This document shows, piece by piece, positions 19,401 to 42,205 of a stretch of DNA of 64,000 bases. Origin of the DNA: Candidatus Gastranaerophilales bacterium (GTDB lineage Bacteria > Cyanobacteriota > Vampirovibrionia > Gastranaerophilales > JANQFW01); assembly GCA_028280605.1 (NCBI GenBank), contig JANQLL010000143.1, forward strand, positions 4,218-68,217. The letters are read 5' to 3'. The notes beneath the pieces are model-generated. The model was not told the DNA's origin. It did not search any database and saw only the letters and a program-made list of their open reading frames with translations. How positions within the stretch are numbered: the stretch's first letter is position 1; each line of letters opens with the position of its first letter. A program made the translations under genes and the position numbers.

Positions 19401-20378
19401 TTAACTTTTAGCCCATCTGGCAAACTCATCAGAGGAAAGGTTGAGAATATCGTTAATCCCTAAACTTTTGTTAGCTATCGGGTTACTGGAAGAGTCGATG
19501 TCTTTAACAGTTCTGAGTCTTGCTTTTTCCATATCATTTTTTTGATTTAATTTAAGTTCCTCCTGGAATACTTTTCTTTCGTCCAGTCGAACTTTTTTAA
19601 TTAAATTCATAATGACATTGGGATCGTCTGCAGCATCGTTAAAGTACATTTCAAATATTTCATTGTTGATATGGTTTGTAAGGAACTCAGAATTCGATTC
19701 CATAAAGCCTTTCTGAGTATTTTCCAGCTCTTGAGTGTATTCATCATTAATCTGGTTGTTGAGAATTGATATTTTATTGTTTAATCTCATTTGGGCGTCT
19801 GATATTTCTCGAGACAGACTAAGTATAGAGTTGCTATCAAGCCTTGCAACTAAATCATTAATAATATTTTGAGTAGTATGAGTATCATTTTTTAACATTG
19901 CATCATGATAAAGTCTCAATTTTGTATCAATTGCAGGAATATTGAAATGGCGAGCGTATTTTTCAATAATTCTCAATTGTTCCGAATGAAATTCATTTTG
20001 CATTTGTTGAGAATAAATATGTTTTTTAACTTCAAGCTCGTTATTATAGCCGTTTTTAGCTGCAAGTTCTTTAAAATACTCAAGTTCTTTATCTTTTTCT
20101 TCAAATTCTTGTAGTTTTTGAGTTGCAAACTCTGTTTTCTGTTTACCTAAATAGCTTTCTAGCTCTTTATAACCTTTTTCAGCCTCATCTAGGGTTTTGT
20201 ATTTTCCAAAGATCAGTTTTTCATCAAGGTTTTTTATAACATAGTCACTTAAATTTTCACTAGTCTGGTTAGTATCAGGCTCTTTGGATAGTGAGGTATC
20301 CGTATTTACGGGCTCATTCAAAGAGGTATCTGGCACATTATTTTCCAGACTGGTTGAAAGATTAGCATCAAAATCCAT
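19401..20378 (-). CDS. putative scaffolding protein
   Basis: Acidic, highly helical/coiled-coil 325-aa protein immediately upstream of the capsid gene. ATG at 20378 has an AAGGAG RBS. Confidence 0.55.
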   Translation of the reverse strand: MDFDANLSTSLENNVPDTSLNEPVNTDTSLSKEPDTNQTSENLSDYVIKNLDEKLIFGKYKTLDEAEKGYKELESYLGKQKTEFATQKLQEFEEKDKELEYFKELAAKNGYNNELEVKKHIYSQQMQNEFHSEQLRIIEKYARHFNIPAIDTKLRLYHDAMLKNDTHTTQNIINDLVARLDSNSILSLSREISDAQMRLNNKISILNNQINDEYTQELENTQKGFMESNSEFLTNHINNEIFEMYFNDAADDPNVIMNLIKKVRLDERKVFQEELKLNQKNDMEKARLRTVKDIDSSSNPIANKSLGINDILNLSSDEFARWAKS

Positions 20379-20418
20379 AATAATCTCCTTAATTATACTT
20401 ATTACAAGCTTAAATATG

Positions 20419-20455
20419 AAAACTAACACTACAATGATTGAGTAGTGCTAGTTTT
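20419..20455. other. 14-bp hairpin in the scaffold gene 5' leader
   Basis: aaaactaacactac / gtagtgctagtttt (one mismatch), 9-nt loop. Confidence 0.4.
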
Positions 20456-20680: not shown

Positions 20681-21124
20681 ATGGGATATTTTGAAGTTTT
20701 TAAAAATGTGAAAGGTTCGCCAAAAATATTATTATTAGTTTTAATACAGTTTATATCTTTGTTGTTAATCTCAGGTATAGGTGTGTTGATCTTATACAAT
20801 GCGCAAAATTCTCTTGAAAAAATTTATAACGATAACTTATTAATCTCAGAACGTTTATACAATTTAAGGATGGAGGTAAAAGACTTACCGAGCAATATAA
20901 CTTATCTAGTAAAATCATCAGGAAGTTCTCAAAAAAGAGAAAAGAAAGCGAGAAATATAGTAAAGCAAAGTCAAGAGAACATTGATAAAAATATCAATCA
21001 ATTATCAAAAATAGATTTTAGTAGTGATCAATCTAAAAGTTTTGACGAGTTAATAAAATTAAAAGAGCAAGTTGATGAAAATTTAAAAAAGATAAATGCT
21101 TTGCTTAAAGCGGAAGGTCATTAA
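20681..21124 (+). CDS. truncated paralogue of the chemoreceptor sensor domain (TM + 4-helix-bundle N-terminus only)
   Basis: 147 aa, alignable by eye to residues about 15-150 of the MCP at 22663 (LL.SE/TQNLY.LR......L......L..SSG.S.K.E.KAR). It lacks the HAMP and signalling domains. Confidence 0.6.
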   Translation: MGYFEVFKNVKGSPKILLLVLIQFISLLLISGIGVLILYNAQNSLEKIYNDNLLISERLYNLRMEVKDLPSNITYLVKSSGSSQKREKKARNIVKQSQENIDKNINQLSKIDFSSDQSKSFDELIKLKEQVDENLKKINALLKAEGH

Positions 21125-21566
21125 ACAGTCGGAATAAATAATTTTTATATGGCATGTATTTAATGTAAAGCTCTATTGATAAGTGTGAAATATTATGAAA
21201 GGCTAATTTGTATTAAAGAATAAGTCTGATATATGTTTTATACTGCGTTTACTTCTGATTTTTTATACCTAATTTTAAAAATATCATTGGGATCAAATAT
21301 GTTAAGTTACATTAAATTATTTGTAATAGGCATATAAAGGAAATATTTTAAAATTAGGTTAATTTTTGTCAAAATAGTTTAAACTTTTTATAAATTGATA
21401 CGATTATTATTATATAGGGATTAAATTTTTTATGAAATTTTGGAGATAGGAATACTTTTAGCTGTGTTTTGTTTTTAAAAAAAAAGATTGCGTAATTTAT
21501 AGAAAAAATATATAATTTAATTTGTGATTTATTGTGATATTTTTGTTTTGAAAAGGAGAGTAATGT

Positions 21567-22562
21567 ATGAGAAAGTTTAGTTGTTTTGTTTTAAGTATCT
21601 TTTTATTCTTATTTGCCTTTTTTATTGTAACTAATATAGAGGTATCTGCAGCTGCGCAAAAAATTGGCATCGTAATGTGGAATAACAAAAGTGGAGCGTA
21701 CTTAAAGCCACTTGCTAAAATAAAAGAAGAATTATTTAAAAAAGGATACACAGAAAGCCAATTAGAAGTGTTTTTTCCACCAGCTGCAGCTAAAAAAGCA
21801 GAGAAAAAGCAATTCTTTCAAAACTTATTCACCAGATTAAATGGTTCAAGTGACTATAAACTAGTTGTTACAAGTGGTACTAACTGTACTAAAATTGGTG
21901 CATCAATAGTTAAAGATAAACCTCTTGTATTTTTTAGTGTAACCGATCCGGTTGCTTCAAAACTAGTAGATTCTTGGGAGTCTTCAGGTAATAACTTAGC
22001 AGGTGTAAGTATTAAAGTTCCAATTAAAACAGTTATGTATACATTTACCCAAGTAGCACCTGATGCAAGTACAATTGGTGTAATTCACAAAAAAGGTGAT
22101 TTCTCAGGTTTACCATATATTGATGAAATCAAAAAATTTGCAACAAACCTTTCAGTAAAATTTATTATCGAAGAAGTTGATGATCATACTCAGTTAAAAC
22201 AAAAAACTAGAGAAATGTTAAGTAAAGTTGATGGGTTTTTCTTACACGGTGAAACAATTATATCAACTTATGGAAAAGACATTGTAGATGTTGCAACTGA
22301 GAATAACAAACCAACCTTAGGATTAAAAAAGTATATAGTAAAAGACTGGGGTTGTACATTAGGTAACGTTGTTGACTTTGAATTGGTTGGTATAAAAGCT
22401 GCAGGTATTATCGATAGAGTATATAAAGGTGCGGATCCTGCAAGTCTTAATGTAGTTCTTTTAAAAGAGTTTCCATTGTTAATTAACCTCAAAAACATTA
22501 AACAAATTGGTTTAGACTTACCCTATGACGCTATAGACTTAGCTGATGAAGTTATTGAATAA
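21567..22562 (+). CDS. periplasmic substrate-binding protein (ABC_sub_bind / BMP-like family)
   Basis: Signal peptide, KIGIVMW start, and FFSVTDPVASKLVDSWESSGNNLAGVS, which matches the family motif FTAVTDPV..GLV.S...PG.NVTGVS. Confidence 0.65.
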   Translation: MRKFSCFVLSIFLFLFAFFIVTNIEVSAAAQKIGIVMWNNKSGAYLKPLAKIKEELFKKGYTESQLEVFFPPAAAKKAEKKQFFQNLFTRLNGSSDYKLVVTSGTNCTKIGASIVKDKPLVFFSVTDPVASKLVDSWESSGNNLAGVSIKVPIKTVMYTFTQVAPDASTIGVIHKKGDFSGLPYIDEIKKFATNLSVKFIIEEVDDHTQLKQKTREMLSKVDGFFLHGETIISTYGKDIVDVATENNKPTLGLKKYIVKDWGCTLGNVVDFELVGIKAAGIIDRVYKGADPASLNVVLLKEFPLLINLKNIKQIGLDLPYDAIDLADEVIE

Positions 22563-22662
22563 TTGATTCAAATTACTATTTATTTTAATCTTTAAAGTTT
22601 TATTTATTGTATACTTACTAAAGATTGAAATCGAGTTTAAAAAGATGAGGTTGTAAATTATA

Positions 22663-24402
22663 ATGAACCCTTTTAATTTTAAGATTTTTTACAATATGAA
22701 TGTTTTCCACAAAATTTTATCAATGGTTGTAATAATGCTTATGTCCCTGATTTTAATCGGGGGCATAAGTGTGATCAGCACTTACAACTCTGGAAACGTT
22801 CTTAGTCAAATATATGAGAATAATCTCTTAAGTACACAAAATTTATATAGTTTAAGGAATGATGCTGATAAACTATCAATCAGTATATCAGATTTAATAA
22901 GGTCTTCAGGTAGGTCTGCAAAAAAAGAAGCAAAAGCCAGAAAATTAATAAGAACCTTTAAACAAAATATAATTGAAAATATTGAAAAATTAAATGATAA
23001 AAAATTAAAAAGTGAACAAGCTAAAAACCTTGAGATTTTACTAGGTATCAAAAAAGACATTGATAATAACTTAATACAGCTAAATAAGCTGCTTAAAGAT
23101 GATGCATCGATTAAAGAAATTTATAATATGGATAAAATCATCAAAGAGCAAATTTCTTCAAAGTTTATTGCACAAGTAGATGTTCTTATTGATAATAATC
23201 AAAAAGAAGCAAAAAGTGTTATAAACCAAAATGTAAGAAATGCTTATTGGCAAGTCTTTGTAATATTTTGCATTTTTATATCATTTACCCTAGTTACTGT
23301 TGCTCTTGGTATAAAATTGTCTACTATGATATCTACGCCACTAAATAAAGTTGACAAAAATATTGATAAACTCTCACAAGGTGATTTAACAATCGCTGAC
23401 ACTGAGATTACATCAAGCGATGAAATAGGAAAAATTACAAAATCAATTAACCTGTTAAAAAATCAATGGCATTTGCTAATAAAAGATATCAAAACAATGT
23501 CAACAGATTTATCTAATAGTTCTAAGGATGTAGTAAGTGCGACCAATTCCTACTACGATGAATTTAAAAAGATCAGAGATAATGTTGATGAGTTAAATAG
23601 TTTGTATAGTACACAACGTAGTGAACTTGATGAAGGTGTTAATTGTATTAATAGCTTAAACAATGTTATTGAACAGATTTCAGAAAGTTCAGACAGTACT
23701 GCAAAATTATCACGCCTCTCTCAAGACAAAATTAACGATGCGTTAAGCGGGATGAGAAAATCAAAAGTAAAAATTGATCAAGTGAAATCAAAAACAGCAA
23801 ATACTTCAAACTCTATCCATGAACTAAGTAAATTTAACTCTGAGATTCAAAAAATTACAGAACTTATTAATAATATTGCAAATAATACAAACTTATTAGC
23901 GCTTAATGCAGCTATTGAGGCAGCAAGAGCAGGTGAAGCCGGTAAAGGTTTTGCTGTAGTAGCTGACGAAATAAACAAGCTGGCTAAGCAATCTTCTGAT
24001 TCTACAACCTTAATTGCAAAAACAATTAAGCAGATACAAGAAAACATAAATGAAGCTGTGGCAGCAATGGACGAAAGCGCTATGGAAGTTGATGCAAGTG
24101 TAGAATTAATCGATATTGTAGATACTTTATTAGTTGAAATTCTAGAGTTCTCACAAAAAAATACAGAAAATATGAACGAAATCGAGAATGTATCCAAGGT
24201 TATGGTTGATAATTCCAGTGAAATGGTAGATAAGCTCGAAAGTATTTCTGCTATTAACGAAGAAGCAATCGCCGGAAATGATATGATATTAGAGGCATCT
24301 AAATCTCAAGCTGAGAATTTAAATGTAATCAAAGATTATCTTAATTTGTTAGGCAAAAATATGGATAATCTTGAAAACGAGACACAAAAATTCAAAACCT
24401 AG
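22663..24402 (+). CDS. methyl-accepting chemotaxis protein
   Basis: Two TM segments, a HAMP region, and the invariant signalling hairpin [31 protein letters not shown]. Confidence 0.9.
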
Positions 24403-24433
24403 TATCATTGCATTCCATAATTAATTTTTAGAA

Positions 24434-24467
24434 AAATCCCTGCTTGTCTTGACTAAGCGGGGATTTT
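24434..24467. terminator. bidirectional terminator closing both the MCP gene and the cassette array
   Basis: Stem atccctgctt/aagcggggat flanked by an A-run and a T-run. Confidence 0.65.
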
Positions 24468-24837
24468 AGGATTCAGGAGGTTTTATTTTCTGTAAAATTC
24501 TATGCGTCGAATAGTAATATTGCTCATCAAGCACTTGTGTTCGTTCAAGCTCTTCCAATCGTTTTATAAATCTAACATCTTTTATTTTTTGCCTGACGTC
24601 ATCTTTTGTATAATAAGCTGGATCATCTAGTTCATCCCTTGTTTTAGCAAGGCAATCTACCAATTCAATGTGATAATGAAGGTCTTGAATAATATCAAAC
24701 TCAGCATCTGTTATTTCATCCTCTGGAGCATAGTCATCAGTCACACAAAACATTTCATCTGCGTATACACCCATAAATGTATCTATATCATCCTTTTTAC
24801 AGGACTCTAATATTCTTTTAGCTATATCTGTTAACAT
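24466..24837 (-). CDS. array cassette 10, family B small acidic protein
   Basis: MLTDIAKRILESCKKDDIDTF...LEELERTQVLD. ATG at 24837 chosen by analogy with the other B copies. The centre carries the A-type motif AKTRDELDD. Confidence 0.7.
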   Translation of the reverse strand: MLTDIAKRILESCKKDDIDTFMGVYADEMFCVTDDYAPEDEITDAEFDIIQDLHYHIELVDCLAKTRDELDDPAYYTKDDVRQKIKDVRFIKRLEELERTQVLDEQYYYSTHRILQKIKPPES

Positions 24838-24954
24838 ATTGCGCACCCCTTATTATTTATGATCCCAGCTGTTCATTTTACTTGCACTCAACGCTTTACC
24901 TGTTTTCATGCCAGCCTCCTTTCTATTTTTACAATAGTTTATTAGATTGTTTTT

Positions 24955-25281
24955 TTATTCATCAAGTACCTGAGTTCGTTCAAGCTCTCCTAGCTTTTCT
25001 ATTATTCTTTTGTCTTTAACTTCTTCCAGCATTTCATACCTTGTATAAGAGTTTCTTTTATCACTGAGCTCATCTTTAGTTCTAGCATTTACTACACAGA
25101 GATCACCTTCAATGAATATAATTTCCAAGATATCATCTTCAGCTTCAGTTGTTCCAGCAAAATGTGCGTTATATACATATTCTTCTTTGTAAAGGTCAAT
25201 AAATTCCACCAGTGCATCTTCATCTCCATTAATAGCTTTTTTGCCTAGTTCATATAATTCACGTGCTAATTTTGACAACAT
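24955..25281 (-). CDS. array cassette 9, family A small acidic protein
   Basis: MLSKLARELYELGKKA..GDEDAL N-terminus, with a B-type tail LGELERTQVLDE. Confidence 0.7.
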   Translation of the reverse strand: MLSKLARELYELGKKAINGDEDALVEFIDLYKEEYVYNAHFAGTTEAEDDILEIIFIEGDLCVVNARTKDELSDKRNSYTRYEMLEEVKDKRIIEKLGELERTQVLDE

Positions 25282-25399
25282 ATCATACCCACTCCTTGTT
25301 TTTTACGTCTCCAGTTGTTCGTTTTACTTGCATTCAACAGTTTGCCTGTTATCATGCCAGCCTCCTTTCTATTTTACAATGATAATAAAGCTTAGTTAT

Positions 25400-25738
25400 C
25401 TATTTATTCACATCATTTTCATCAATAACCTGTACTTTATCTAGTTCTTCTAGTCGTTCTATTACTCTACGGCCTTGCATTTCTTCTAGGACGTCATATA
25501 TTGTATAGTTATCCTCATCATATAGTTTATCAGGTGTCCTAGCCTGTCGTTCACATGTTTCACCAGCTGTATGTATACTTAATAAAATGTTATATTCATC
25601 CTCTGTCAGGTTAGCATCATTTAAATTATCTACATACTCATCACGATAAAGATCAATAAAATTCAATAGTGCATCTTCATCACCTATTAAAGCTTTTTTA
25701 CCTAATTCATATAATTCACGTGCTAATTTTGATAACAT
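25400..25738 (-). CDS. array cassette 8, family A small acidic protein
   Basis: MLSKLARELYELGKKALIGDEDAL...LEELDKVQVIDENDVNK. Confidence 0.7.
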   Translation of the reverse strand: MLSKLARELYELGKKALIGDEDALLNFIDLYRDEYVDNLNDANLTEDEYNILLSIHTAGETCERQARTPDKLYDEDNYTIYDVLEEMQGRRVIERLEELDKVQVIDENDVNK

Positions 25739-25808
25739 ATCATACCCACTCCTTGTTTTTTACGTCTCCAGTTGTTCGTTTTACCTGCATTCAACAGTTT
25801 GCCTGTTA

Positions 25809-26150
25809 TCATACCAGCCTCCTTTCTACTTTACATTGATTATCATCAAGCACCTGTGTTCGTTCAAGCTCTTCTAGCCGTTCTATAAACCTAACATCTT
25901 TTATTTTTTGCCTAACTTCATCTACTGTATAAAAAGCTGGATCTTCCAATTCCTCTCTGGTACCAGATTGTACCAGTTCAATGTGTTCATGGATGTCTTC
26001 GATAATATCTATTTCAGCATCAGTCATTTCGTCATATGGTGCATAATCATCAGTCACGCATGATATTTCATCTGCATATATACTCATAAATGTATCTATA
26101 TCATCATTTTTACAGGACTCTAATATTTTTTTAGCTATGTATGTTAACAT
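25809..26150 (-). CDS. array cassette 7, family B small acidic protein
   Basis: MLTYIAKKILESCKNDDIDTF...LEELERTQVLDD. The C-terminus reads on into sequence that is the leader in other units. Confidence 0.7.
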   Translation of the reverse strand: MLTYIAKKILESCKNDDIDTFMSIYADEISCVTDDYAPYDEMTDAEIDIIEDIHEHIELVQSGTREELEDPAFYTVDEVRQKIKDVRFIERLEELERTQVLDDNQCKVERRLV

Positions 26151-26253
26151 ATTGCGCCCACTCCTTCGACTCTCGTTTTACTTGCATTCAACAGTTTGCC
26201 TGTTATCATGCCAGCCTCCTTTCTATTTTACAATGATAATAAAGCTTAGTTAT

Positions 26254-26592
26254 CTATTTATTCACATCATCTTCTTCAATGACCTGTACTTTATCAAGCT
26301 CTCCTAGTTGTTCTATTATTTTCCAGGTTTTTAATTCTTCTAGCAGATCATATATTGTATAATTTTCTTCTTCATATAGTTCATCTGGTGTTTTTGCCTG
26401 TCTTTCACAAAGCTCACCTGCTGTATGTACAATAAATAAAATTCTCTTTTCGGCTTTTGTTACGTTGGCATCATTCAATTTATCTACATACTCATCACTA
26501 TAAAGATCAATAAATGCTAATAAAGCATTCTCATCTCCAGTTAGAGCTTTTTTACCTAGTTCATATAATTCTTGTGCTAATTCTGATAACAT
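26254..26592 (-). CDS. array cassette 6, family A small acidic protein
   Basis: MLSELAQELYELGKKALTGDENAL...LGELDKVQVIEEDDVNK. Confidence 0.7.
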   Translation of the reverse strand: MLSELAQELYELGKKALTGDENALLAFIDLYSDEYVDKLNDANVTKAEKRILFIVHTAGELCERQAKTPDELYEEENYTIYDLLEELKTWKIIEQLGELDKVQVIEEDDVNK

Positions 26593-26706
26593 ATCATACC
26601 CACTCCTTGTTTTTTACGTCTCCAGTTGTTCGTTTTACCTGCATTCAACAGTTTGCTTGTTATCATGCCAGCCTCCTTTATATTTTACAGTGATTGTTCA
26701 TTATTT
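26593..26706 (-). promoter_or_regulatory. representative conserved inter-cassette leader (SD + mini-ORF); 9 copies in the array
   Basis: Minus strand reads AAAGGAGGCTGGC-ATG ATA ACA .GC AAA CTG TTG AAT GCA .GT AAA ACG. The same core is in all nine spacers between 24847 and 28445. Confidence 0.6.
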
Positions 26707-27027
26707 TTACTCAACAACTTGTACTTTATCCAATTCTTCTAATTCTTCTATAATTTTACGTTCTTTTATTTCTTCTAATGCCTCATATCTTGTATAAGAC
26801 TCTTCATCATATAGTTCATCTCGTGTTTTTGCATTTAATTCACAAATTTCAATAGTTATATATATATCAAATAAAATGCTATCTTCATCTTCAGTTAACT
26901 TAGCATAATCTAAATTATTTATGTATTCTTGACGATAAAGATCAATAAAGTCAACCAATGAATCTTCATCTCCTGCAATAGCTTTTTTGCCCAACTCATA
27001 TAATTCTTGCGCTAATGTTGACAACAT
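26707..27027 (-). CDS. array cassette 5, family A small acidic protein
   Basis: MLSTLAQELYELGKKAIAGDEDSL...LEELDKVQVVE. Confidence 0.7.
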   Translation of the reverse strand: MLSTLAQELYELGKKAIAGDEDSLVDFIDLYRQEYINNLDYAKLTEDEDSILFDIYITIEICELNAKTRDELYDEESYTRYEALEEIKERKIIEELEELDKVQVVE

Positions 27028-27122
27028 AATATTGAGCTCTTTCCTTCGACTCTCGTTTTACTTGCATTCAACAGTTTGCCTGTTATCATGCCAGCCTCCT
27101 TTCTGTTTTACTAAAGTATTTA

Positions 27123-27434
27123 CTATTTATCAAGCACCTGTGTTCGTTCAAGCTCTTCCAATCGCTCTAAAAATCTAACATCTTTTATTTTTTGCCTAAC
27201 TTCATCTACAGTATAATAAGCTGGGTCATCCAACTCTTCTCTTGTACCAGCTTGAACCAGTTCAATGTATTCATGAATTTCTTCAATAATATCTATTTCA
27301 GCACGAGTCATTTCGTCATGTGGAGCATAATCATCAGTCACACAAAACATTTCTCTTGAGTATACGCATATAAATCTATCTATATCATCGTTCTTACAAG
27401 ATTCTAATATTCTTTTAGCTATGTATGTTAACAT
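27123..27434 (-). CDS. array cassette 4, family B small acidic protein
   Basis: MLTYIAKRILESCKNDDIDRF...LEELERTQVLDK. The internal ATG at 27434 is preferred over the 17-codon extension in the ORF track. Confidence 0.7.
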   Translation of the reverse strand: MLTYIAKRILESCKNDDIDRFICVYSREMFCVTDDYAPHDEMTRAEIDIIEEIHEYIELVQAGTREELDDPAYYTVDEVRQKIKDVRFLERLEELERTQVLDK

Positions 27435-27569
27435 ATTGCGCCACCCCTTATTATTTATGATTCCAGCTGTTAGTTTTACTTGCATTCAACATTTTGCCTG
27501 TTATCATGCCAGCCTCCTTTCTATTTTACAATGATAATAAAGTTTAGTTATCTATTTATTCACATCATC

Positions 27570-27890
27570 TTATTCAATAACCTGTATTTTATCTAGCTCT
27601 TCTAGCTTGTCTATTACTTTCCAAGTTTTCAATTCTTCTAGTACGTCATATATTGTATAACAATCTTCCTCATATAGCTCATCTGGAGTTCTAGCTTGTA
27701 GCTCACATATATCAATACCCGTGTGTATAATTAATAAAATATTGGATTCATCTTTTGTTAAACCTGCATTGCTTAATTTCTCAATATACTCATTACTATA
27801 AAGCATAATAAATTCTACCAGTGCATCTTCATCACCAGCTGTAGCTTTTTTACCTAACTCATATAATTCTTGTGCTAATTCTGACAACAT
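27570..27890 (-). CDS. array cassette 3, family A small acidic protein
   Basis: MLSELAQELYELGKKATAGDEDAL...LEELDKIQVIE. A TAA replaces the GAA that continues as EDDVNK in cassettes 6 and 8. Confidence 0.7.
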   Translation of the reverse strand: MLSELAQELYELGKKATAGDEDALVEFIMLYSNEYIEKLSNAGLTKDESNILLIIHTGIDICELQARTPDELYEEDCYTIYDVLEELKTWKVIDKLEELDKIQVIE

Positions 27891-28003
27891 ATTGCGCCCA
27901 CTCCTTCGACTCTCGTTTTACTTGCATTCAACAGTTCGCCTGTTATCATGCCAGCCTCCTTTCTGTTTTACGCTTTACATTTTACAATGATTGTCAATTA
28001 TTT

Positions 28004-28324
28004 TTACTCAACAACTTGTACTTTATCCAATTCTTCCAGTTTTTCTACTATTTTCCAGGTTTTAATTTCTTCCAATACTTCATCTATAGCATAACAATAT
28101 TCATCATCCAGTTCGTCTCGAGTTTTTGCATCAAGTTCACAGGTGTCACCAGCTGTATATATAGTAAATAAAATTTTCTTTTCGGCTCTAGTAATATCAG
28201 CGTAATCTAAATTTTCTACATATTCCTTACGGTAAAGTATAATAAATTTCATTAAAGCATTTTCATCTCCAGCTAGAGCTTTTTTACCTAATTCATATAA
28301 TTCTTGTGCTAATTCTGATAACAT
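28004..28324 (-). CDS. array cassette 2, family A small acidic protein
   Basis: MLSELAQELYELGKKALAGDENAL...LEELDKVQVVE; internal ATG at 28324 preferred. Confidence 0.7.
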   Translation of the reverse strand: MLSELAQELYELGKKALAGDENALMKFIILYRKEYVENLDYADITRAEKKILFTIYTAGDTCELDAKTRDELDDEYCYAIDEVLEEIKTWKIVEKLEELDKVQVVE

Positions 28325-28445
28325 ATTGCGCCACCCCTTATTATTTATGATTCCAACTGTTCGTTTTACTTGCATTCAACAGTTTGCCTGTTATCATGCC
28401 AGCCTCCTTTCTGTTTTACAATGATAATAAAATTTAGCTATCTAG

Positions 28446-28808
28446 TTATTCTTCTTCACCTTCGTCATCATAATCATCATCTTCTTCTTCAATAACTTGC
28501 ACTTTATCAAGTTCTCCAAGTTTTTCTATCATTTTATCGTCTTTAACTTCTTGTAAAAATCCATACCTTGTATAAGAGTTTCTTTTATCATAGAGGTCAT
28601 TTTTAGTTTTGGCATTTACCTCACAGAGATCGCCGGCAATAAATGTGATACATAAAATATCACGCTCCGCATCAGTTATATCCGCAAAATGTGCGTTATC
28701 TACATATTCGTCCTTGTAAAGGTCAATAAATTCCACCAGTGCATCTTCATCACCAGCAATAGCTTTTTTGCCTAGTTCATATAATTCTTGTGCTAATTCT
28801 GACAACAT
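28446..28808 (-). CDS. array cassette 1, family A small acidic protein; candidate cognate partner (immunity-like) of the upstream 634-aa protein
   Basis: Starts 30 nt after the 634-aa gene stop with its own RBS and lacks the conserved leader; poly-acidic tail EEEDDDYDDEGEEE. Confidence 0.7.
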   Translation of the reverse strand: MLSELAQELYELGKKAIAGDEDALVEFIDLYKDEYVDNAHFADITDAERDILCITFIAGDLCEVNAKTKNDLYDKRNSYTRYGFLQEVKDDKMIEKLGELDKVQVIEEEDDDYDDEGEEE

Positions 28809-28838
28809 ATTATATTTGTCCTTTCTAATATATTTTGA

Positions 28839-30743
28839 TTATTCAACATTTTTTTTAATAATAGTCCATTTTTCTGAATCTGTATTTGTCTTTAAAAGAT
28901 TCACAGTATCAGCTCGGAAGAATGTAACAACCTCATCTGTATGCTCATCCAAGACAACAACATAACGATCACTGTTTATTATTTTTGTTTTAATAATTTT
29001 AAAACCAGGTTCATCTTTCTTCTTTTCAAAATATCTCTGGCCTGTTTCTTTTGTTATTTTAATAAAATTCACGTCACTCACTTCATATCTATTAATGTTT
29101 GTTATAAGTCGATACTGCCCGTGCTTAGTAAATTTAAGCCCTTTTTTTTCGAGATCTCTGAGATGTTTAAAAGATTTAGTGACACCTTTAATCTTTACAG
29201 TATGTTTTTCTCCTTTAGGGCAGTAACGCACAAAATCTTTAGCTCTTTCAAGCTCTTCTGATAGAAGCTCTTTGGATTTTTCTATTTCTTTTATTGTAGT
29301 CTTTATTCTATCACGAATTTCTGCAGGACTTAAATTTTCTGTCGATTCACATAGCTCTGCTAGTTGCTCAGGAGGAAGCTTTCCTTTTTTCTTTTTGCTT
29401 TTTCTTTTTACTCCTTTAATCGTCTTTCCAATAGAGAATCCGCCTAAAGTTAATTCCGCTAAATTAGTTCCAATTGAGCCTGCATGCGCTATGGCCTCTA
29501 AGTCAGAATACCTATTTTCATATGTACCACCAGAAGGATGAGGCATATTTCGTATATCAGGCAGTTGATAAGGCTTATATTTCTTACCGGTATAAGTAGA
29601 AGCTAATCCAGTCAGCATATTCACTGAATCTTGCATGTTATCCCTTAAGGTTCTAGCTGCTCCATAATTGAATGCGTTTTGAGTATCCAGAATCGTTCTA
29701 TAGGGATTTTGTCTAAGAGCACCACCATAAGATTGAATACTATTATTCAAATAGTTGCCATAATCCATTAAACCTTGAGGCAAGTTTTTTATAACTTCAG
29801 GTATGCTTGCTATGCTGTTAATTCCTGCATCCATCAAGTTATACAGGCCATCATAATGAATAGAATAATCTGGGTCATACAAGTTATTTGGATTTAAAGA
29901 AGTAGTAAAAGGTTGCATCCAGGAGGGTGGTTCAGTAACTATTGGTTTTCTTCTTGTATTATTGCTATTTGAATCAAAATACGGCATTTGCTCAAAAGCA
30001 GGTGGAGGAACATCCAACGGCAAATCCCCACCAATCTTAGGATTGGTATTGATATTTGGCATAGGATTATAACCAGGTGCTCCTTGCCTCTGACGGCTAA
30101 GTTCACTATATGCTTTTGTCGTCGTAGATGTAATATTAAGAATATTATTGATTGCAGACTTAACTTGTTCTTTAGTAATACCGTCCTTAGGCTCTTGTGG
30201 GTCTTGAGGCTCTTTGGGCTTGACTGGAGGCGGTGATGGAGGAGGCTCTAGATACTCATTTTTTGTAATACCTAATATAAGTTTGCCTCTTTCACTGTCA
30301 TAAGTATATCCTTCACCTGCGTCAGCTCCTGGATTATCTTTATTAGCCATCAATGGAGCGGGTCTGGTTGGATTGAATGGGTCATAGCGCATTAATAAAT
30401 CATGAGTTTGTGGATCATAATAATACCAATCTCTAGGTTTTCTTGACCAGCTTGGCATCGGTACAGGACCAAATTCTGGAGGTATGTCAGGAAAATCATC
30501 AGGCCAAGGACTAAATCCCGGATCTGGATCATAATAATCCCAATAATCCCAAATGTCAGGTTTTCTTGGCCAGCTAGGCATAGGTACAGGACCAAATCCT
30601 GGATCGGGATAATACCCACTCCAAGGTCTACGCTTAGGGTAAATTCTAATTGCTTTAAAATTTTCACGTGGCGGTAATTTCACCGGAGAGTTAACCTCAG
30701 GTAAATGAGGTATCAATCCTGGATCAATATTTATCATTGCCAT
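28839..30743 (-). CDS. 634-aa modular protein: W/P/D-rich repeat N-terminus, Lys-rich linker, C-terminal ~180-aa domain resembling DUF4258/RelE-fold toxin modules (inference)
   Basis: Duplicated FGPVPMPSW.RKP..W.YYDP units, PPPSPPPVKPKEPQDPQEP linker, KRKSKKKKGK linker, and a C-terminal FTKHGQYRL...VSDVNFI...DRYVVVLDEHTDEVVTFFRA pattern. Confidence 0.5.
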   Translation of the reverse strand: MAMINIDPGLIPHLPEVNSPVKLPPRENFKAIRIYPKRRPWSGYYPDPGFGPVPMPSWPRKPDIWDYWDYYDPDPGFSPWPDDFPDIPPEFGPVPMPSWSRKPRDWYYYDPQTHDLLMRYDPFNPTRPAPLMANKDNPGADAGEGYTYDSERGKLILGITKNEYLEPPPSPPPVKPKEPQDPQEPKDGITKEQVKSAINNILNITSTTTKAYSELSRQRQGAPGYNPMPNINTNPKIGGDLPLDVPPPAFEQMPYFDSNSNNTRRKPIVTEPPSWMQPFTTSLNPNNLYDPDYSIHYDGLYNLMDAGINSIASIPEVIKNLPQGLMDYGNYLNNSIQSYGGALRQNPYRTILDTQNAFNYGAARTLRDNMQDSVNMLTGLASTYTGKKYKPYQLPDIRNMPHPSGGTYENRYSDLEAIAHAGSIGTNLAELTLGGFSIGKTIKGVKRKSKKKKGKLPPEQLAELCESTENLSPAEIRDRIKTTIKEIEKSKELLSEELERAKDFVRYCPKGEKHTVKIKGVTKSFKHLRDLEKKGLKFTKHGQYRLITNINRYEVSDVNFIKITKETGQRYFEKKKDEPGFKIIKTKIINSDRYVVVLDEHTDEVVTFFRADTVNLLKTNTDSEKWTIIKKNVE

Positions 30744-30865
30744 ACGTTCAACTCCTTATAATTTAAAGAAGCCCCATTATGGACTTCTTTACTTGCTAAC
30801 ACGTCATATATCACCAATAATAATACTTATTGGTAAACTCAAGTTATATCAAAAGCTTATTGCGA

Positions 30866-31123
30866 TCACTCAGAGCGCTTCACCTTTGCTTCAAATTCAT
30901 CAGCATTTTTTGCCATACTCTTAATCATTTCAAGAATCCGCCTCATACCAACCGCAATAAAATAATTGCTAATAGACCCAAAAAGCGTCAAAATATTTGC
31001 CCTCTGTATCATCCCCAGTACTTCACTATTCACGGCATTCTCAAAAACCTTATAAGCATCGCTTTTATAAAACTCACGTACCTTTTTGTTATCGTGATAT
31101 TGCTTAAAGCATTCGTTTTTCAT
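30866..31123 (-). CDS. hypothetical 85-aa protein with one hydrophobic segment; first gene of the toxin/array unit
   Basis: AAGGAG RBS; ILTLFGSISNYFIAVGM hydrophobic stretch; preceded by the structured leader. Confidence 0.45.
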   Translation of the reverse strand: MKNECFKQYHDNKKVREFYKSDAYKVFENAVNSEVLGMIQRANILTLFGSISNYFIAVGMRRILEMIKSMAKNADEFEAKVKRSE

Positions 31124-31150
31124 AAATAAACTCCTTATATTATTCAGAAT

Positions 31151-31300
31151 AAAAAGGGAACAGGCGGTGACCTTGACACCGCCTGCCAGACCGGACCAAG
31201 GTCCCGGTCTGTATAATGTGGGATCCCCAACTGGCGCACGCCATCAACAAGAAAAGCACCCATCCCCTCAGTTCCCTTCCCTGGAATGGAAGGGGAGGAT
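31151..31300 (-). ncRNA. GC-rich structured leader or small RNA ending in an intrinsic terminator
   Basis: Consecutive GC stems: cccttcc/ggaaggg (31274-31294), cagaccgg/ccggtctg (31187-31211), caggcggtg/caccgcctg (31161-31185). The last is followed by a T-run on the minus strand. Composition contrasts sharply with the AT-rich flanks. Confidence 0.4.
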
Positions 31301-31339
31301 CAAAAGCATAAAATATAAATAAAAAAATTAGTTTTTATA

Positions 31340-31381
31340 AAAAAGAAGAAAAAAGCGGGCCTGCAAAAGCATAAAGCCCGC
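31340..31381 (-). terminator. intrinsic terminator after the portal gene
   Basis: Stem gcgggc/gcccgc followed by a long T-run on the minus strand. Confidence 0.6.
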
Positions 31382-31407
31382 CAGACAAAAGGACGAGTAA
31401 GGGTATT

Positions 31408-33150
31408 TTACATAATAGGTGGAGGAACATTAGCAGGTGATGGGACCTCTTCAGGAGGTGCGCCTCTCATAGCTTGCATTTGCTGAACAAGAAAGTCAGC
31501 AAGCTGATTTTTCACCTGAGGCAGCATATCTGGTGGGAACTGATTAAGCAATACATCAAGCTTATCAGCCAGCACAAAACGCTCAGGGTGTTTGATATTT
31601 TGGAATTCTAACCAATATTTAAATGTTTCAGCAGTGTTAACAGGCGCACCTGCTACCATAAATTTTTCCAAACCCTGAACAAAATTATCTATTTCACCCT
31701 GACGCTGTAATAAGCCCTTACGATCAGTATAGTCATATTTATAAGAGCCTTGACGTACATCTGGCGTAATATTTAAGTTAATAAGCTGATGCTTCAAGTA
31801 TATAGGGATATTTTCTTCATCCAATTTAAAATTACCAAGCAAATCAGCAATTTTCATAATAATATCAATCAAAAATTCTTGAATCTCTTCAATAACAAGC
31901 ATCAAGCGTATTTGTTGCCCGTTAACAAGTATATTAGCCTCGGTAGCCGTTCTTGTAGAATCATCCTGAATACCTGCCATATAAGGAAATATCCCGGACG
32001 TACTTTGCATAACAGATTTAAAATAATCCAAAAACTTAAAATCAACCCAAGTAGAATCAAATCTAACAGGTTGAGGCATTTGTTGCACCTGCCAATTATC
32101 GATTGCATAATAACGCCCCGGCTCCCATTCAATATCGCCGGTATCATCAGCCAGACCTTCAGGTCCAATCATTGGTGGGTTTTGGACTAACTCTAATATA
32201 TTCATCATTCTGGTTAATATGTGGCTGGAAACCAAATTATGAGCAATCAACACCTTAAGCGGAGACACACCCCGTTTGGTTTCATGATCTTTTACCACCT
32301 GATAAATAACAAAAGGATTACTAATATAAGGATTTTGTTCAAACCTGATAACGTGTTTATTATCTGCAATAACAACAAGCCAATTTTTCAAATTCGTCCC
32401 GTCTGATAGCTTAACATCGCCCCAGCATTCTAGTAGTTCTATTTTGTTGGGTTCAGTAGACGCATGATATTTTTCTTTCAACTCAGACTTAACTTCTTTG
32501 CTAAGATTAAAAGTTTTTTCCTCCAGCAAATGCTCATAAGATATATGTTTTCTGCGTATTTTCAATGCCCTGTCAAAGTCCGTACAATCCACATCATAAA
32601 CAAAGTCTTTGCTGTCAACATTTTCTGTCTTAGGCCCGTCGTATACGGTTTCGTTTAATAAAACGAACTTATTTTCAGTCTCATCTTTTCGCCTAACCTG
32701 TTTAACCTTTGTTTGCCAACCGATTTCAGCAATAAACTCGCCATAAATCAAATAATTTTCAAGTATATCCCTGGACTCCTTTTTAAACTCCATATCTCTC
32801 AAAGCATATAAAAGCGCTTCTTTTTGCGCATAAGAATTATTATGGCTAACCTCATCCCTGCCCAAAACCGCAAAATTCTCCAGATGACTGTCCATATATT
32901 GTCTTAAATTTGCTTTAAGCGTTTCTTTTAGTTCATACATAGTATCAGTATCAATAAGATCATTATATTTGATATCTGACACAGCATCCCTGTCAATCAT
33001 TTTCAAAAGCGTTTCGCCATCTTTAAGATGTCTTTTTCTGCTATTATCAAATTTAACAAACTTGGAAGACAGCTCTTGAGCCAATTTTTCAGCCAAGCTG
33101 TCGCTAAGGCGGACTTCTTTATCCTCCTTAATAAACACAAAACTATCCAT
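31408..33150 (-). CDS. putative phage portal protein
   Basis: 580 aa, lying between the terminase/lysozyme genes and the capsid module. The call rests on size and position only. Confidence 0.55.
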   Translation of the reverse strand: MDSFVFIKEDKEVRLSDSLAEKLAQELSSKFVKFDNSRKRHLKDGETLLKMIDRDAVSDIKYNDLIDTDTMYELKETLKANLRQYMDSHLENFAVLGRDEVSHNNSYAQKEALLYALRDMEFKKESRDILENYLIYGEFIAEIGWQTKVKQVRRKDETENKFVLLNETVYDGPKTENVDSKDFVYDVDCTDFDRALKIRRKHISYEHLLEEKTFNLSKEVKSELKEKYHASTEPNKIELLECWGDVKLSDGTNLKNWLVVIADNKHVIRFEQNPYISNPFVIYQVVKDHETKRGVSPLKVLIAHNLVSSHILTRMMNILELVQNPPMIGPEGLADDTGDIEWEPGRYYAIDNWQVQQMPQPVRFDSTWVDFKFLDYFKSVMQSTSGIFPYMAGIQDDSTRTATEANILVNGQQIRLMLVIEEIQEFLIDIIMKIADLLGNFKLDEENIPIYLKHQLINLNITPDVRQGSYKYDYTDRKGLLQRQGEIDNFVQGLEKFMVAGAPVNTAETFKYWLEFQNIKHPERFVLADKLDVLLNQFPPDMLPQVKNQLADFLVQQMQAMRGAPPEEVPSPANVPPPIM

Positions 33151-36088: not shown

Positions 36089-37375
36089 TCACCGCCTAAC
36101 CACCTTAATAGGATAAAAGAATTCAATGGGATAACTTGCCGCATCAAATATGTGCCCCATAAACTTAGCGTTTCGATCCGTCTTTATTTGCTGATGAGAA
36201 GGCACATCAAGCTGGGTTGTCCCCTCTTTGTATTTTAAATTCCTAATATTATGCAGCAACCACTTGCATCTGGGATTTACAAAAAGCTCTCTTTTGCCGT
36301 TCTGATTTAATACTTTTGCATTAAAAGCAGCAATCCTGCTGTTAACAGAAGGATTAAAATTACGTATCTTAACCTTTGGCCTGTATCCGTATTTTTTCAA
36401 TTGATTAAATATAATTGCATAATCAGTAAAAATACTGCTGGTCTTTCTATAATCACCGGACGCATCGCCAGTTATAACGATTTTGCCCTTATGATGTGGA
36501 TACCTGTGAATAAATTCTTCGGCAGCATCTTTAGTAGTGGTATTTTCAATAACAATCTCATCAAAAAAATAAAAAGCCCCGTCACGAACAAAAAATACCA
36601 CCCACGACATAGGATCAACGTTAAAATCACATCCGATAAATAATGTCTCATCGTCCTTGTATTCAATATTATTTTTAATATTTACACCGGTAAAATGCTT
36701 AACAACAAGCCCTTTTGTATAATCTCCAAACTGCCCCAGAACATTTATTTTATAGTAGTCAGGGTCAAATTTGTCTTTCATGTTGTCAATATACTCATCA
36801 GGCAGGTGAATATTTTCAGTAGTAGGTGCAATCAATAGCCTGTAGTTTTCTTTTTCATTCTCAACAAAATGTTTGTAAATCCATCCCTTGTTAGGTTCAG
36901 GGTTAGTATGCCCAAACAGTCTGTATCTAGGTATCCCTGACTGTCTTAAACGACTTAAAAGCATAAAAAAAGATGCCTCAGGGACATCCGATACTTCTTC
37001 TATTTCAACAAACCCCAGGTTTAGCGATTTCAAGCTTTCCGGCTCATCCAAATATTTAAACATAATTTCCGAAGAATTTTTAAACTTTATTTTATGGTCT
37101 GTTTTGTTAAATTCGTAGTCTATCTTCATATTTCTTAAATGTTCAAAATACGTTTGTAACGTAGTTTCAGAAACAAGTTTAAATGTTTTGGCGCCAACCA
37201 GTCCTTTAATTCCTGGGTATTTTTGTGCCAGCAGTATGCCAAGTAGAGCTCCAGACCAGGTTTTACCACTGCCGTAGCCTCCCTGGTAAATTGCAACATC
37301 AATTTTATGTTCATGTTCGATTTCCAAAAAGTCCTTTTGAGCAGGTAATAACGTGTATTCATTCATATTTAGCAC
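36089..37375 (-). CDS. terL: phage terminase large subunit
   Basis: Walker A GGYGSGKT, Walker B-like LGFVEIEE, and nuclease-domain acidic motifs IGCDFNVDP / ITGDASGD. Confidence 0.85.
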   Translation of the reverse strand: MLNMNEYTLLPAQKDFLEIEHEHKIDVAIYQGGYGSGKTWSGALLGILLAQKYPGIKGLVGAKTFKLVSETTLQTYFEHLRNMKIDYEFNKTDHKIKFKNSSEIMFKYLDEPESLKSLNLGFVEIEEVSDVPEASFFMLLSRLRQSGIPRYRLFGHTNPEPNKGWIYKHFVENEKENYRLLIAPTTENIHLPDEYIDNMKDKFDPDYYKINVLGQFGDYTKGLVVKHFTGVNIKNNIEYKDDETLFIGCDFNVDPMSWVVFFVRDGAFYFFDEIVIENTTTKDAAEEFIHRYPHHKGKIVITGDASGDYRKTSSIFTDYAIIFNQLKKYGYRPKVKIRNFNPSVNSRIAAFNAKVLNQNGKRELFVNPRCKWLLHNIRNLKYKEGTTQLDVPSHQQIKTDRNAKFMGHIFDAASYPIEFFYPIKVVRR

Positions 37376-39422: not shown

Positions 39423-39782
39423 GTGAAAAAAAATATTAAAAAAAATTTAGAATACTACTTAAACTTACCTTGGAAGTTTGAGTATGAAAAAGCTCTTGAA
39501 GGTGGCTTTTATGTTAGAGTAAAAGGTCTGGCGTGTCATTCGCATGGCGATAATATGGAAGAAGCTTATCAAAATATTCAAGAAGCTTTGGAATGCTTTT
39601 TAGAAACAGCTGTTGAAAATAATATTCTTGTAAATGAGCCTGTAAGTCAAGCTGATTGTAATGGTAGGCTTAGCTTTAGAACCACTAAATCTATGCACTG
39701 TAAATTAGCTCAAATTGCAAAAGAAGAAGATGTAAGCGTTAGCCATCTTATCAATGACGCTATCACTAAAATGTATGGTTAA
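39423..39782 (+). CDS. HicB-family antitoxin-like protein (RNase H-like fold + RHH tail), orphan
   Basis: GGFYVRVKGLACHSHGDNMEEAYQNIQEALE and a C-terminal RLSFRTTKSMHCKLAQIAKEEDVSVSHLINDAI ribbon-helix-helix. No hicA-sized ORF adjacent. Confidence 0.7.
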   Translation: MKKNIKKNLEYYLNLPWKFEYEKALEGGFYVRVKGLACHSHGDNMEEAYQNIQEALECFLETAVENNILVNEPVSQADCNGRLSFRTTKSMHCKLAQIAKEEDVSVSHLINDAITKMYG

Positions 39783-42182: not shown

Positions 42183-42205
42183 AAGTTTTGAAGCTGGGGA
42201 AAAAC

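Follow-up and report, generated by a model that had tools for sequence, protein, structure and literature searches.

A toxin-like gene and a string of ten acidic, immunity-like paralogues form a candidate antagonism unit in a prophage-like element of a Gastranaerophilales bacterium

Introduction

Nuclease colicins and S-type pyocins are paired with acidic immunity proteins, and some of their operons carry extra orphan immunity genes. In the esaD-esaG locus of Staphylococcus aureus and in the streptococcal tipC arrays, a toxin gene and its cognate immunity gene are followed by up to 10–15 non-identical paralogues of the immunity gene (PMC9484751). Conserved blocks at the 5' and 3' ends of these paralogues, together with conserved intergenic regions, mediate recombination (PMC9484751). 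This general strategy is already known, and it has so far been documented mainly for type VII secretion system (T7SS) toxins of Firmicutes. In temperate phages, MuF toxins are encoded just downstream of the portal gene and are followed by a short open reading frame (ORF) of <150 amino acids (aa), which is taken as the immunity gene (PMC5576092). Here we describe a unit of similar anatomy in a stretch of 64,000 nucleotides (nt) from a Candidatus Gastranaerophilales bacterium (assembly GCA_028280605.1, contig JANQLL010000143.1, positions 4,218–68,217); this whole stretch is called the window, and coordinates refer to it. The unit occupies positions 24432–31295 of the minus strand, from a GC-rich leader to a closing terminator. 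According to the ORF map it holds, all on one strand, the leader, an 85-aa ORF, a 634-aa ORF, and ten small acidic genes, here called cassettes.

In anatomy, the esaD-esaG locus and the tipC arrays are the closest analogues of this unit. As in EsaD/EsaG, a T7SS nuclease toxin with a DUF600 immunity protein, the first small gene directly follows the toxin-like gene, and about ten diverged paralogues come after it (in S. aureus, up to 10–12 non-identical copies of esaG). Both kinds of string have conserved end blocks, a conserved downstream intergenic region and mosaic members, and neither holds toxin fragments within the array. The two also differ. No DUF600, LXG or WXG domain was found in the unit by Pfam, its carrier is prophage-like, its host is diderm, and its spacers carry a core with a strong Shine-Dalgarno (SD) sequence, a hairpin and a mini-ORF. 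Toxicity and immunity belong to EsaD/EsaG as known activities, whereas here they are candidate roles only. A T7SSb is not expected in this host, since the host is diderm, with LpxC and LpxD encoded nearby.

The unit also shares features with four other groups of systems. Like MuF polymorphic toxins (PMC5576092; Zhang et al. 2012, PMC3482391), it has a large protein encoded downstream of a portal gene in a prophage, with a C-terminal extension and a small ORF next to it. Unlike them, it lacks a MuF domain, its own leader and the 85-aa ORF separate the portal gene from the large gene, ten paralogues rather than one ORF follow downstream, and no portal gene lies beside the unit in the second locus described below. 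With the nuclease colicins and S-type pyocins (overview in PMC5536347), it has in common a protein of the ~550–700 aa class, in which a low-complexity N-terminus and a central domain lead through a helical linker to a C-terminal domain that is small and basic, a small acidic gene immediately downstream and, apparently, co-transcription of that gene and tight transcriptional control. The N-terminus is proline-rich here and glycine-rich in those bacteriocins, no lysis gene is recognizable here, and, where colicin plasmids carry one or two additional immunity genes, the string here is much longer, with ten paralogues. The likeness to rAID-1 arrays (bioRxiv 10.1101/471110) lies in long, co-oriented arrays of orphan-immunity-like genes on mobile DNA with repetitive intergenic sequences, and in an orphan copy that matches the cognate immunity gene of another strain's effector. 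However, the paralogues here are of one fold and stand directly behind a candidate toxin, while rAID arrays mix unrelated families and come without a toxin. A XerD-like or IntI recombinase was not found among the neighbouring ORFs scanned against Pfam.

Finally, contact-dependent inhibition (CDI; cdiA-CT/cdiI) loci and Rhs orphan modules (Poole et al. 2011, cited in PMC5576092) also consist of a cognate pair followed by further immunity genes, with recombination swapping modules. In those systems the orphans still have a piece of the toxin C-terminus, with a stretch homologous to the main gene as a handle; the unit has no such pieces. In layout, the unit resembles the esaD-esaG, MuF, colicin, rAID-1 and CDI/Rhs systems, but it lacks what defines each of them and belongs to none: a DUF600 or LXG domain, a MuF domain, a cytotoxic or Im domain of the colicins, a XerD/IntI recombinase and orphan C-terminal stubs are all missing. 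What is new here is the protein families, the host lineage, the phage-like carrier, and the unusual spacer and leader.

A large gene followed by ten maintained acidic paralogues

The unit was first noticed in an original prediction, which a model made from the letters of the window and a list of its ORFs. It described, on the minus strand, a 634-aa ORF, a 120-aa acidic ORF 30 nt behind it, and nine further ORFs of about 105–125 aa at a period of 410–480 nt. We recovered this layout, with the large ORF at 28839–30743, the first cassette at 28446–28808 and the 30-nt gap at 28809–28838. The array of cassettes is a real and non-random feature; its function we infer. The prediction had missed the actual first gene of the unit, the 85-aa ORF at 30866–31123. 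The ten cassettes encode proteins of 103–123 aa with an isoelectric point (pI) of 4.06–4.48 and 26–37 Asp plus Glu residues each, and they follow one another at 407–484 nt from start to start. Each opens at ML(S/T), with an AAGGAG or AAGGGG SD sequence upstream. Exactly ten copies were found in the window by tblastn, none of them outside the array. Searches of Pfam, PHROGs, PADLOC, NCBIfam and PDB sequences matched the cassettes to no family.

An alignment with MAFFT separated seven family-A from three family-B cassettes, with 32–35% identity between the families. It reproduced the predicted conserved N-terminus, variable centre and shared C-terminal motif: both families begin with ML.., vary in the centre and end in L(E/G)EL(D/E)(K/R)(V/T)QV. 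The split into two families stood, and nucleotide identity resolved it further, into four mosaic subtypes. Subtype A'' comprises cassette 1 (120 aa), which has an acidic tail and is the candidate cognate partner of the large protein, and cassette 9 (24955–25281, 108 aa), a mosaic with a B-type 3' end. Cassettes 2 (28004–28324) and 5 (26707–27027), both of 106 aa, make up subtype A. Subtype A' is formed by cassettes 3 (27570–27890, 106 aa), 6 (26254–26592, 112 aa) and 8 (25400–25738, 112 aa). The B group holds cassettes 4 (27123–27434, 103 aa), 7 (25809–26150, 113 aa) and 10 (24466–24837, 123 aa); the last is the final gene of the array and also lies beside a chemoreceptor gene on an independently assembled contig from the Logan collection. 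All cassettes are on the minus strand. The amino acid identity of the paralogues to cassette 1 ranges from 32% to 74%.

The array bears marks of duplication and recombination. Traces of a duplicated block of three cassettes are visible, with cassettes 2-3-4 corresponding to 5-6-7. In a sliding nearest-neighbour comparison, the first 90 nt of cassette 2 were 95–97% identical to cassette 6, after which the best partner changed; the 5' half of cassette 7 was nearest to cassette 10 and its 3' half to cassette 4; and cassette 9 proved to be an A''-type gene ending in the B-type ...ELERTQVLD block. Nei-Gojobori estimates gave a ratio of nonsynonymous to synonymous divergence (dN/dS) of 0.17–0.36 in nearly all within-family pairs, and of up to 0.53 in pairs with cassette 9, at a within-family dS of 0.45–1.35. 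The gene ends were the most constrained (omega ~0.1), while values reached ~0.4 in the centre and exceeded 0.45 in no window of the scan. Judged by these substitution patterns, the cassettes are real, old and maintained genes that are under purifying selection and recombine. Two of them carry marks of decay. In cassette 3 (27552–27572), a GAA-to-TAA change trims an EDDVNK tail that cassettes 6 and 8 keep. In cassette 7 (25809–25860), a 17-nt deletion relative to the copy in the second locus removed the stop codon, and the ORF enters the spacer.

The 634-aa protein consists of several regions of different composition. Residues 1 to ~290 form tandem repeats rich in Pro, Trp, Tyr and Asp, with 24% proline in residues 1–130 and 16% in residues 131–296. 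A polar central domain (residues ~297–447) is followed by a Lys-rich linker with a long helix (~448–510) and by a basic alpha/beta domain (~511–634, pI 9.7). The C-terminal region as a whole (residues 448–634; 28842–29402, minus strand) is the candidate effector or toxin domain. The C-terminal domain has a net charge of +9, or +12 with the linker included, and its pI of 9.5–9.7 is complementary to that of the cassettes (4.1–4.5). Residues that are invariant between this protein and its one homologue include two histidines and an arginine (H527, H541 and R545, which are positions H73, H87 and R91 of the C-terminal alignment). Such a set would be compatible with a small, metal-independent nuclease, which is a guess from the residues conserved.

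In line with the prediction, which had seen no known trafficking domain, the library searches found none. Neither the 634-aa protein nor its homologue had a Pfam or NCBIfam domain anywhere, and exhaustive phmmer returned no relatives with trafficking domains. Pfam scans of the unit yielded no VENN, PAAR or YD motif or domain, sub-regions of the large protein had no match to MuF (PF04233/PF06152) even at E ≤ 10, and sequence searches for an HNH, E3, E5 or D-type cytotoxic domain and for the Im family were likewise negative. PDB sequence searches with single sequences and profiles gave nothing for the proteins of the window. Beyond the relatives described below, the only signal was marginal: at E 6e-4 library-wide, the middle domain matched an unannotated protein of 312 aa, encoded on a 2-kb contig and containing hydrophobic stretches rich in Gly and Ala.

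A second locus shares the module and one cassette

Relatives of the unit are very rare. We ran word-indexed searches of 5.8 billion clustered proteins with a cassette profile and the large protein, and an exhaustive phmmer search without a word index with residues 190–634 against 1.84 billion representatives, together with a profile search for the middle domain. Pattern and tblastn scans covered IMG/VR, the JGI metagenomes and GTDB genomes, tblastn was run against INPHARED phages, and exact-pattern scans were made for the spacer and the leader. Apart from the source contig, all these searches together turned up only a pair of Logan contigs from related runs and a single contig of a metagenome-assembled genome (MAG). 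Among the 5.8 billion clustered and 1.84 billion representative proteins, the only homologue of the large protein was P0012 (662 aa). It is encoded on that MAG contig (JANQHM010000272.1, 13.8 kb, Candidatus Gastranaerophilales), which holds the only related locus (L001/L004, hereafter L001).

The L001 locus has the same order as the unit in the window: a GC-rich leader (9440–9585, plus strand), an 85-aa ORF, the gene for P0012, 18 nt, a cassette, and the same spacer element. The contig ends inside its array. Homology between the two loci begins exactly at the leader (~31295 in the window), and the sequences upstream are unrelated. In L001 the unit is transcribed divergently from phage-like genes, whose products are a tail protein, an endolysin and a protein of 898 aa that is TerS-like at its N-terminus. 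The homology begins at the leader amid different phage-like flanks, and the unit is therefore a discrete mobile module. The prediction had likewise taken it for independent cargo inside a structural operon.

Overall, the 634-aa protein is 43% identical to P0012, which has an extra repeat unit. Identity falls from 65% in residues 1–255 to 42% in residues 297–447 and 33% in residues 448–634. The predicted demarcated C-terminal module is thus the most diverged part of the protein, but the boundary is a gradient rather than a sharp one. As a separate observation, the C-terminal 119 aa in L001 (11630–11986) had a lone PDB match (E 1.3e-4) to residues 184–263 of a DEAD/DEAH-box helicase chain (8s35_M). 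The match is probably spurious, as it covers a motif-II-like stretch and the homologue in the window lacks it.

The cassette directly behind the large gene also differs between the loci: L001 has a family-B copy there, the window one of subtype A''. Identity between A and B cassettes is itself ~33%. The first cassette of L001 is ~99% identical in nucleotides to cassette 7 of the window, from the start codon into the downstream spacer, whereas the remaining B copies of the window, cassettes 4 and 10, diverge from it at 14–19% of nucleotides. The array in the window hence holds a near-identical copy of a gene that elsewhere occupies the 'cognate' position beside a diverged large protein. This is what would be expected if the first cassette fits the adjacent C-terminus and arrays collect the partners of rivals. 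The proposed comparison of cassette content across related genomes could draw on one relative; it revealed a switch in the family of the first cassette and a shared cassette, in a sample of two loci.

Leader, hairpins and inter-cassette spacers

The leader (31150–31295, minus strand, ~145 nt, fold z −2.25) forms the left boundary of the unit. Its GC content is ~58% by eye, against ~30% in the genome and 39% in the surrounding kilobase. It ends in a terminator-like hairpin, located by a terminator scan at 31159–31187, with a T-run just before the ribosome-binding site (RBS) of the 85-aa ORF. This terminal hairpin (CAGGCGGUG...CACCGCCUG) and the following UUCCCUUUUU are common to the window and L001, and the alignment of the two loci from the leader to the 85-aa ORF has a mean column identity of 85%. 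Rfam contains no family for the leader or the unit (whole window at gathering thresholds; 24300–31500 at E ≤ 1). On this comparison of two sequences, the leader is a candidate for a new riboswitch or attenuator. The 85-aa ORF (minus strand) encodes a basic (pI 9.3), helical protein with a moderately hydrophobic centre (maximum KD19 hydropathy 1.3). It is kept at the equivalent position in L001 and has no Pfam, PHROG, PADLOC or NCBIfam family.

Two more hairpins lie between the 85-aa ORF and the large gene (30764–30836, minus strand, fold z −2.9 in the window). The second (30764–30791) has a terminator-like stem followed by UUUAAAUUAU and precedes the RBS of the large gene. Both are retained in L001 with different stem sequences. 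The terminator-like hairpins at the end of the leader and before the large gene look like devices for conditional read-through, by attenuation or in a riboswitch-like manner, which would suit a gene that needs to be kept silent. At the other end, the predicted closure of the array by a bidirectional hairpin was confirmed: the sequence at 24432–24467 folds on both strands (z −3.7 and −3.9) and faces a convergent chemoreceptor gene on the plus strand. The only terminator of the co-oriented string of genes is at this far end.

The cassettes are separated by nine spacers of ~85–135 nt from stop to start, within 24838–28445 of the minus strand; none precedes cassette 1. Cassette 7 reads 51 nt into spacer 8, which leaves 70 nt of non-coding sequence. 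All nine spacers carry a 45-nt core, GGAGGCUGGCAUGAUAACAGGCAAACUGUUGAAUGCAAGUAAAAC. Eight copies have ≤2 mismatches, where 0 are expected by chance (28363–28407, 27915–27959, 27473–27517, 27055–27099, 26632–26676, 26175–26219, 25778–25822 and 25321–25365), and a more diverged copy is found at ~24875–24919. The core is built of a strong consensus SD sequence, 5 nt, and an AUG that opens a mini-ORF of 18–29 aa (MITGKLLNASKT...). This AUG lies inside a hairpin of 12 bp, and the mini-ORF ends shortly before the start of the next cassette or overlaps it. Counting changes in the hairpin, we found four one-sided changes that keep pairing via G-U, two broken pairs and no compensatory pair.

Spacers are 75–99% identical to one another, compared with 61–86% in the coding sequences, in which synonymous sites differ at 35–67%. 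Since spacers are better conserved than synonymous sites, they are either under strong constraint or homogenized by conversion. Several roles for the spacers were considered and rejected. A conserved peptide is not indicated, as about nine substitutions in the mini-ORF were nonsynonymous and one synonymous (counted by eye in shared codons); the predominance of nonsynonymous changes argues that constraint acts on the RNA or on the act of translation, and probably not on the peptide. A scan for the sigma-70 consensus placed no promoter in the spacers. The locus is no integron, given that an integrase was not found among the neighbouring ORFs scanned against Pfam and that the spacer hairpin overlaps the SD sequence and start codon and is not an imperfect palindrome of the attC type. 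Orphan toxin stubs of the CDI/Rhs kind were not found by tblastn and blastn, and nothing in the spacers resembles the large gene. The core might instead serve to re-load ribosomes on the 6.8-kb polycistronic message or to stabilize it, and in addition act as a recombination handle.

Possible function of the unit

We give about an even chance to the reading that the unit consists of a toxin-like effector, its cognate immunity gene and nine further immunity paralogues, and that it forms an autonomous, gated prophage module. The original prediction had proposed such a toxin and orphan-immunity layout. In its favour are the joint change of the C-terminus and the adjacent cassette, the sharing of cassette 7 with L001, the charge pairing and the anatomy of the array; matches in family, fold or trafficking domain did not materialize. 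Under this reading, prophage-like elements of Gastranaerophilales-type bacteria would carry, as their cargo, a mobile module for antagonism that regulates itself. Conditional read-through of the two terminator-like hairpins would keep the large gene tightly off. The 634-aa protein would be a bacteriocin-like or polymorphic-toxin-like effector, with the proline-rich N-terminal repeats and the central domain serving delivery or uptake. Its basic C-terminal domain of ~125–190 aa would be the toxic part, at a guess a small nuclease of the metal-independent type. The acidic, helical protein encoded 30 nt downstream may be the cognate cytoplasmic immunity protein that binds this domain, and the nine other paralogues may be added immunity proteins, shielding the lysogen from variant toxins of related elements. 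The conserved gene ends and the spacers could act as handles by which recombination reshuffles, gains and loses cassettes, while the SD sequence, hairpin and mini-ORF of each spacer could re-load ribosomes or stabilize the long mRNA, such that distal cassettes are still translated. The toxin might leave the producing cell by phage-type lysis or be packaged into particles, both routes being possible.

Several results weigh against this reading. The co-variation of the C-terminus with the adjacent cassette comes from a sample of two loci, and in these two loci the C-termini are still homologous, their divergence is gradual, and true domain swapping is not seen. No protein of the unit matched a toxin, immunity or trafficking family in Pfam, PHROGs, PADLOC, NCBIfam or the PDB sequence search, and neither a signal peptide nor a known export domain was detected in the 634-aa protein. 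The suggested fold search gave no support for a toxin: AlphaFold2 (AF2) modelled the C-terminal domain as helices and then three strands, at low confidence (pLDDT 52), and Foldseek found nothing significant for this model in the PDB (best E 0.74). The AF2 model of a cassette, built from the alignment of ten sequences, has six helices (pLDDT 69) and no significant Foldseek neighbour in the PDB or BFVD (no E < 0.4). The highest-probability PDB matches to it were ImmD, the immunity protein of colicin D (1v74_B and 1tfk_B; probability 0.44–0.57, target-normalized TM score 0.62, E ~2, not significant), and we take this modelled likeness as a lead only. Orphan C-terminal toxin fragments are absent: both C-termini, used as tblastn queries, hit the two complete genes and nothing else. 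The cassettes gave no sign of positive selection, even in their variable centre, with dN/dS ≤ 0.45 everywhere at the resolution of the sliding window. Furthermore, any family of tandem genes would come to have mosaic members and conserved spacers, and the order of the cassettes depends on a single short-read assembly.

Three other explanations were weighed. The cassettes may be a bank of phage counter-defence inhibitors that diversified against host defences that vary, one example being mimics directed at restriction or at other nucleic-acid-binding systems; the large protein would then be unrelated or no more than loosely coupled. Their small size, all-helical prediction, pI of 4.1–4.5 and content of up to 37 Asp and Glu in 120 residues would suit such proteins. 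So would their restriction to one lineage without homologues, their phage-borne state with shuffling between elements, and the presence of a regulated promoter region of their own. We nevertheless consider this bank unlikely, for the first cassette stands 30 nt and 18 nt from the large gene in the two loci and changes type with the C-terminus, no anti-defence family of PADLOC or PHROG was matched, and an arsenal for the time of infection is little needed in an element that looks integrated and possibly defective. To our knowledge, moreover, anti-defence loci are not ten-fold strings of paralogues. A toxin-antitoxin, abortive-infection or superinfection-exclusion module acting inside the cell, in which labile acidic antitoxins restrain an unexported, prophage-encoded effector that kills or arrests an infected cell, would account for the basic/acidic pairing and tight gene coupling as well as the toxin-plus-immunity reading does. 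The prophage location, the lack of a detected export signal and the resemblance of the leader terminators to the control of other tightly repressed toxic genes would fit it too. But one antitoxin would suffice for such a module, leaving ten old, maintained and exchanged paralogues unaccounted for; the 290-aa proline-rich repeat N-terminus is atypical of toxins of this kind, and PADLOC models gave no match. We regard this explanation as quite improbable.

A similarly small probability goes to a virion-associated role, in which the large protein would be loaded near the portal as a head protein that is internal or becomes ejected, comparable to SPP1 gp7/MuF or T4 internal proteins, with the cassettes serving it as chaperones, adaptors for packaging or decoys and not as immunity proteins. 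The place of the unit between the portal and the scaffold and capsid genes is the classic site of minor head and MuF genes (PMC5576092), a targeting signal could lie in the first ~30 residues, which both homologues conserve, and the 312-aa protein marginally matched by the middle domain (E 6e-4) has Gly/Ala-rich hydrophobic stretches. Yet in L001 the unit is not beside a portal gene and runs divergently from the TerS-like gene. It has its own leader and terminators and is not part of the late operon, its proteins match no MuF or other virion family, and ten diverged chaperone paralogues for one client are hard to rationalize. This explanation and that of a toxin can overlap, if the ejected protein is toxic. 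Each of the three rivals fails either on the coupling to the large gene or on the need for ten maintained and exchanged paralogues.

A more far-reaching version of the toxin-plus-immunity reading would see here an unseen class of phage-borne interbacterial weapon in the non-photosynthetic relatives of cyanobacteria. It would join four parts: a protein of bacteriocin type whose toxin fold is new and which leaves the cell through phage-type lysis or in particles; a recombining 'library' of immunity proteins, likewise of a new fold, by which the lysogen withstands toxins from rival elements; a leader, riboswitch-like or an attenuator and so far uncatalogued, that gates the unit as a whole; and a repeated SD-hairpin-mini-ORF spacer that drives the expression of each cassette. 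That all four hold together is doubtful, though we give it some weight. The element, in which integrase and replication genes were not seen, might be a domesticated particle dedicated to warfare.

If the unit is indeed a toxin with immunity paralogues, the strategy of a toxin with a recombining string of immunity genes would extend to a diderm, uncultured gut lineage, the Gastranaerophilales, and to a phage-like carrier. It would then involve one new fold for the toxin and another for the immunity proteins, both missed by current profile libraries, and the shared first-position cassette would illustrate, in a form open to testing, how immunity is acquired from a competing prophage. The conserved leader and the element in the spacers are both candidate cis-regulatory RNAs of a new kind. 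Should the toxin reading be wrong, an old, intact and selectively maintained ten-fold bank of acidic proteins would still need explaining.

Genomic context of the unit

The window is a segment of a chromosome and not a free phage genome. Host genes are found at its left edge (response regulator, YbaB and RecR, 273–2217) and on its right side (PTPase, PfkB, LpxD, LpxC and HisG, 42–58 kb), and between them a podovirus-like element (~2.3–41 kb, 2300–41000) is integrated in the chromosome of this diderm. The element encodes an SU10 adaptor (15352–16026), a P22-like major head protein (18505–19383), a putative scaffold (19401–20429), an SU10_portal protein (31408–33150) and a large terminase (TerL, 36089–37375). 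It further holds a lysozyme, an amidase or internal-virion-like protein, tail-spike-like beta-helix proteins and an FG-GAP/RTX protein. Integrase and replication genes were not recognized among its ORFs scanned against Pfam, and the element may therefore be a defective or domesticated prophage. The window contains no tRNA.

The portal gene lies upstream of the unit and has a terminator of its own; an AT-rich stretch and then the GC-rich leader separate this terminator from the 85-aa ORF. The position of the unit behind the portal terminator, with a structured leader of its own, was as predicted and was reproduced by the terminator scan and by folding. The unit had also been placed between the portal and scaffold genes. 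It does lie within that interval, but the array does not abut the scaffold gene, because three cellular-type genes on the plus strand intervene as a second cargo (20681–24402). These are a 4HB_MCP fragment (20681–21124), a gene for an ABC_sub_bind periplasmic binding protein (21567–22562) and a full gene for a methyl-accepting chemotaxis protein (MCP; 22663–24402, Pfam). Chemoreceptor genes are unusual inside a phage-like structural region. An independently assembled Logan contig (L005, run SRR20820735) carries the end of cassette 9, cassette 10, the MCP, ABC and 4HB genes, the scaffold and the capsid genes; the same junction in an independent assembly means that the junction between array and MCP gene is not an assembly artefact. 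The interior of the array is spanned by one short-read assembly, the single NCBI contig, and the Logan contigs break at both array edges, as expected for repeats; the order and number of the cassettes therefore rest on the NCBI contig.

A few other features of the window were recorded. A transposase ORF of the IS110 family (DEDD; 4869–5597, plus) lies amid the tail-spike genes on the opposite strand, ~19 kb from the unit; no other transposase was found. A group II intron match (domains D1-D4, RF02001, 39.5 bits, at the Rfam gathering level) at 58605–58700 of the plus strand adjoins a 1557-aa ORF (59268–63941, minus) without a Pfam family. Among the small genes upstream of the terminase are those for a Formyl_trans_N protein (37847–38740) and for a HicB-like antitoxin (39423–39782, plus; a weak precomputed Pfam match on the Logan copy). 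The tail region encodes a 1038-aa protein (8510–11626, minus) with seven FG-GAP repeats and RTX calcium-binding nonapeptide repeats, an unusual combination in a protein of phage tails or of host recognition. A 267-aa protein (42188–42991, plus), encoded just beyond the prophage-like region, matches DSP-PTPase phosphatase families, among them Tc-R-P (PF22785), a 'polymorphic toxin system' phosphatase.

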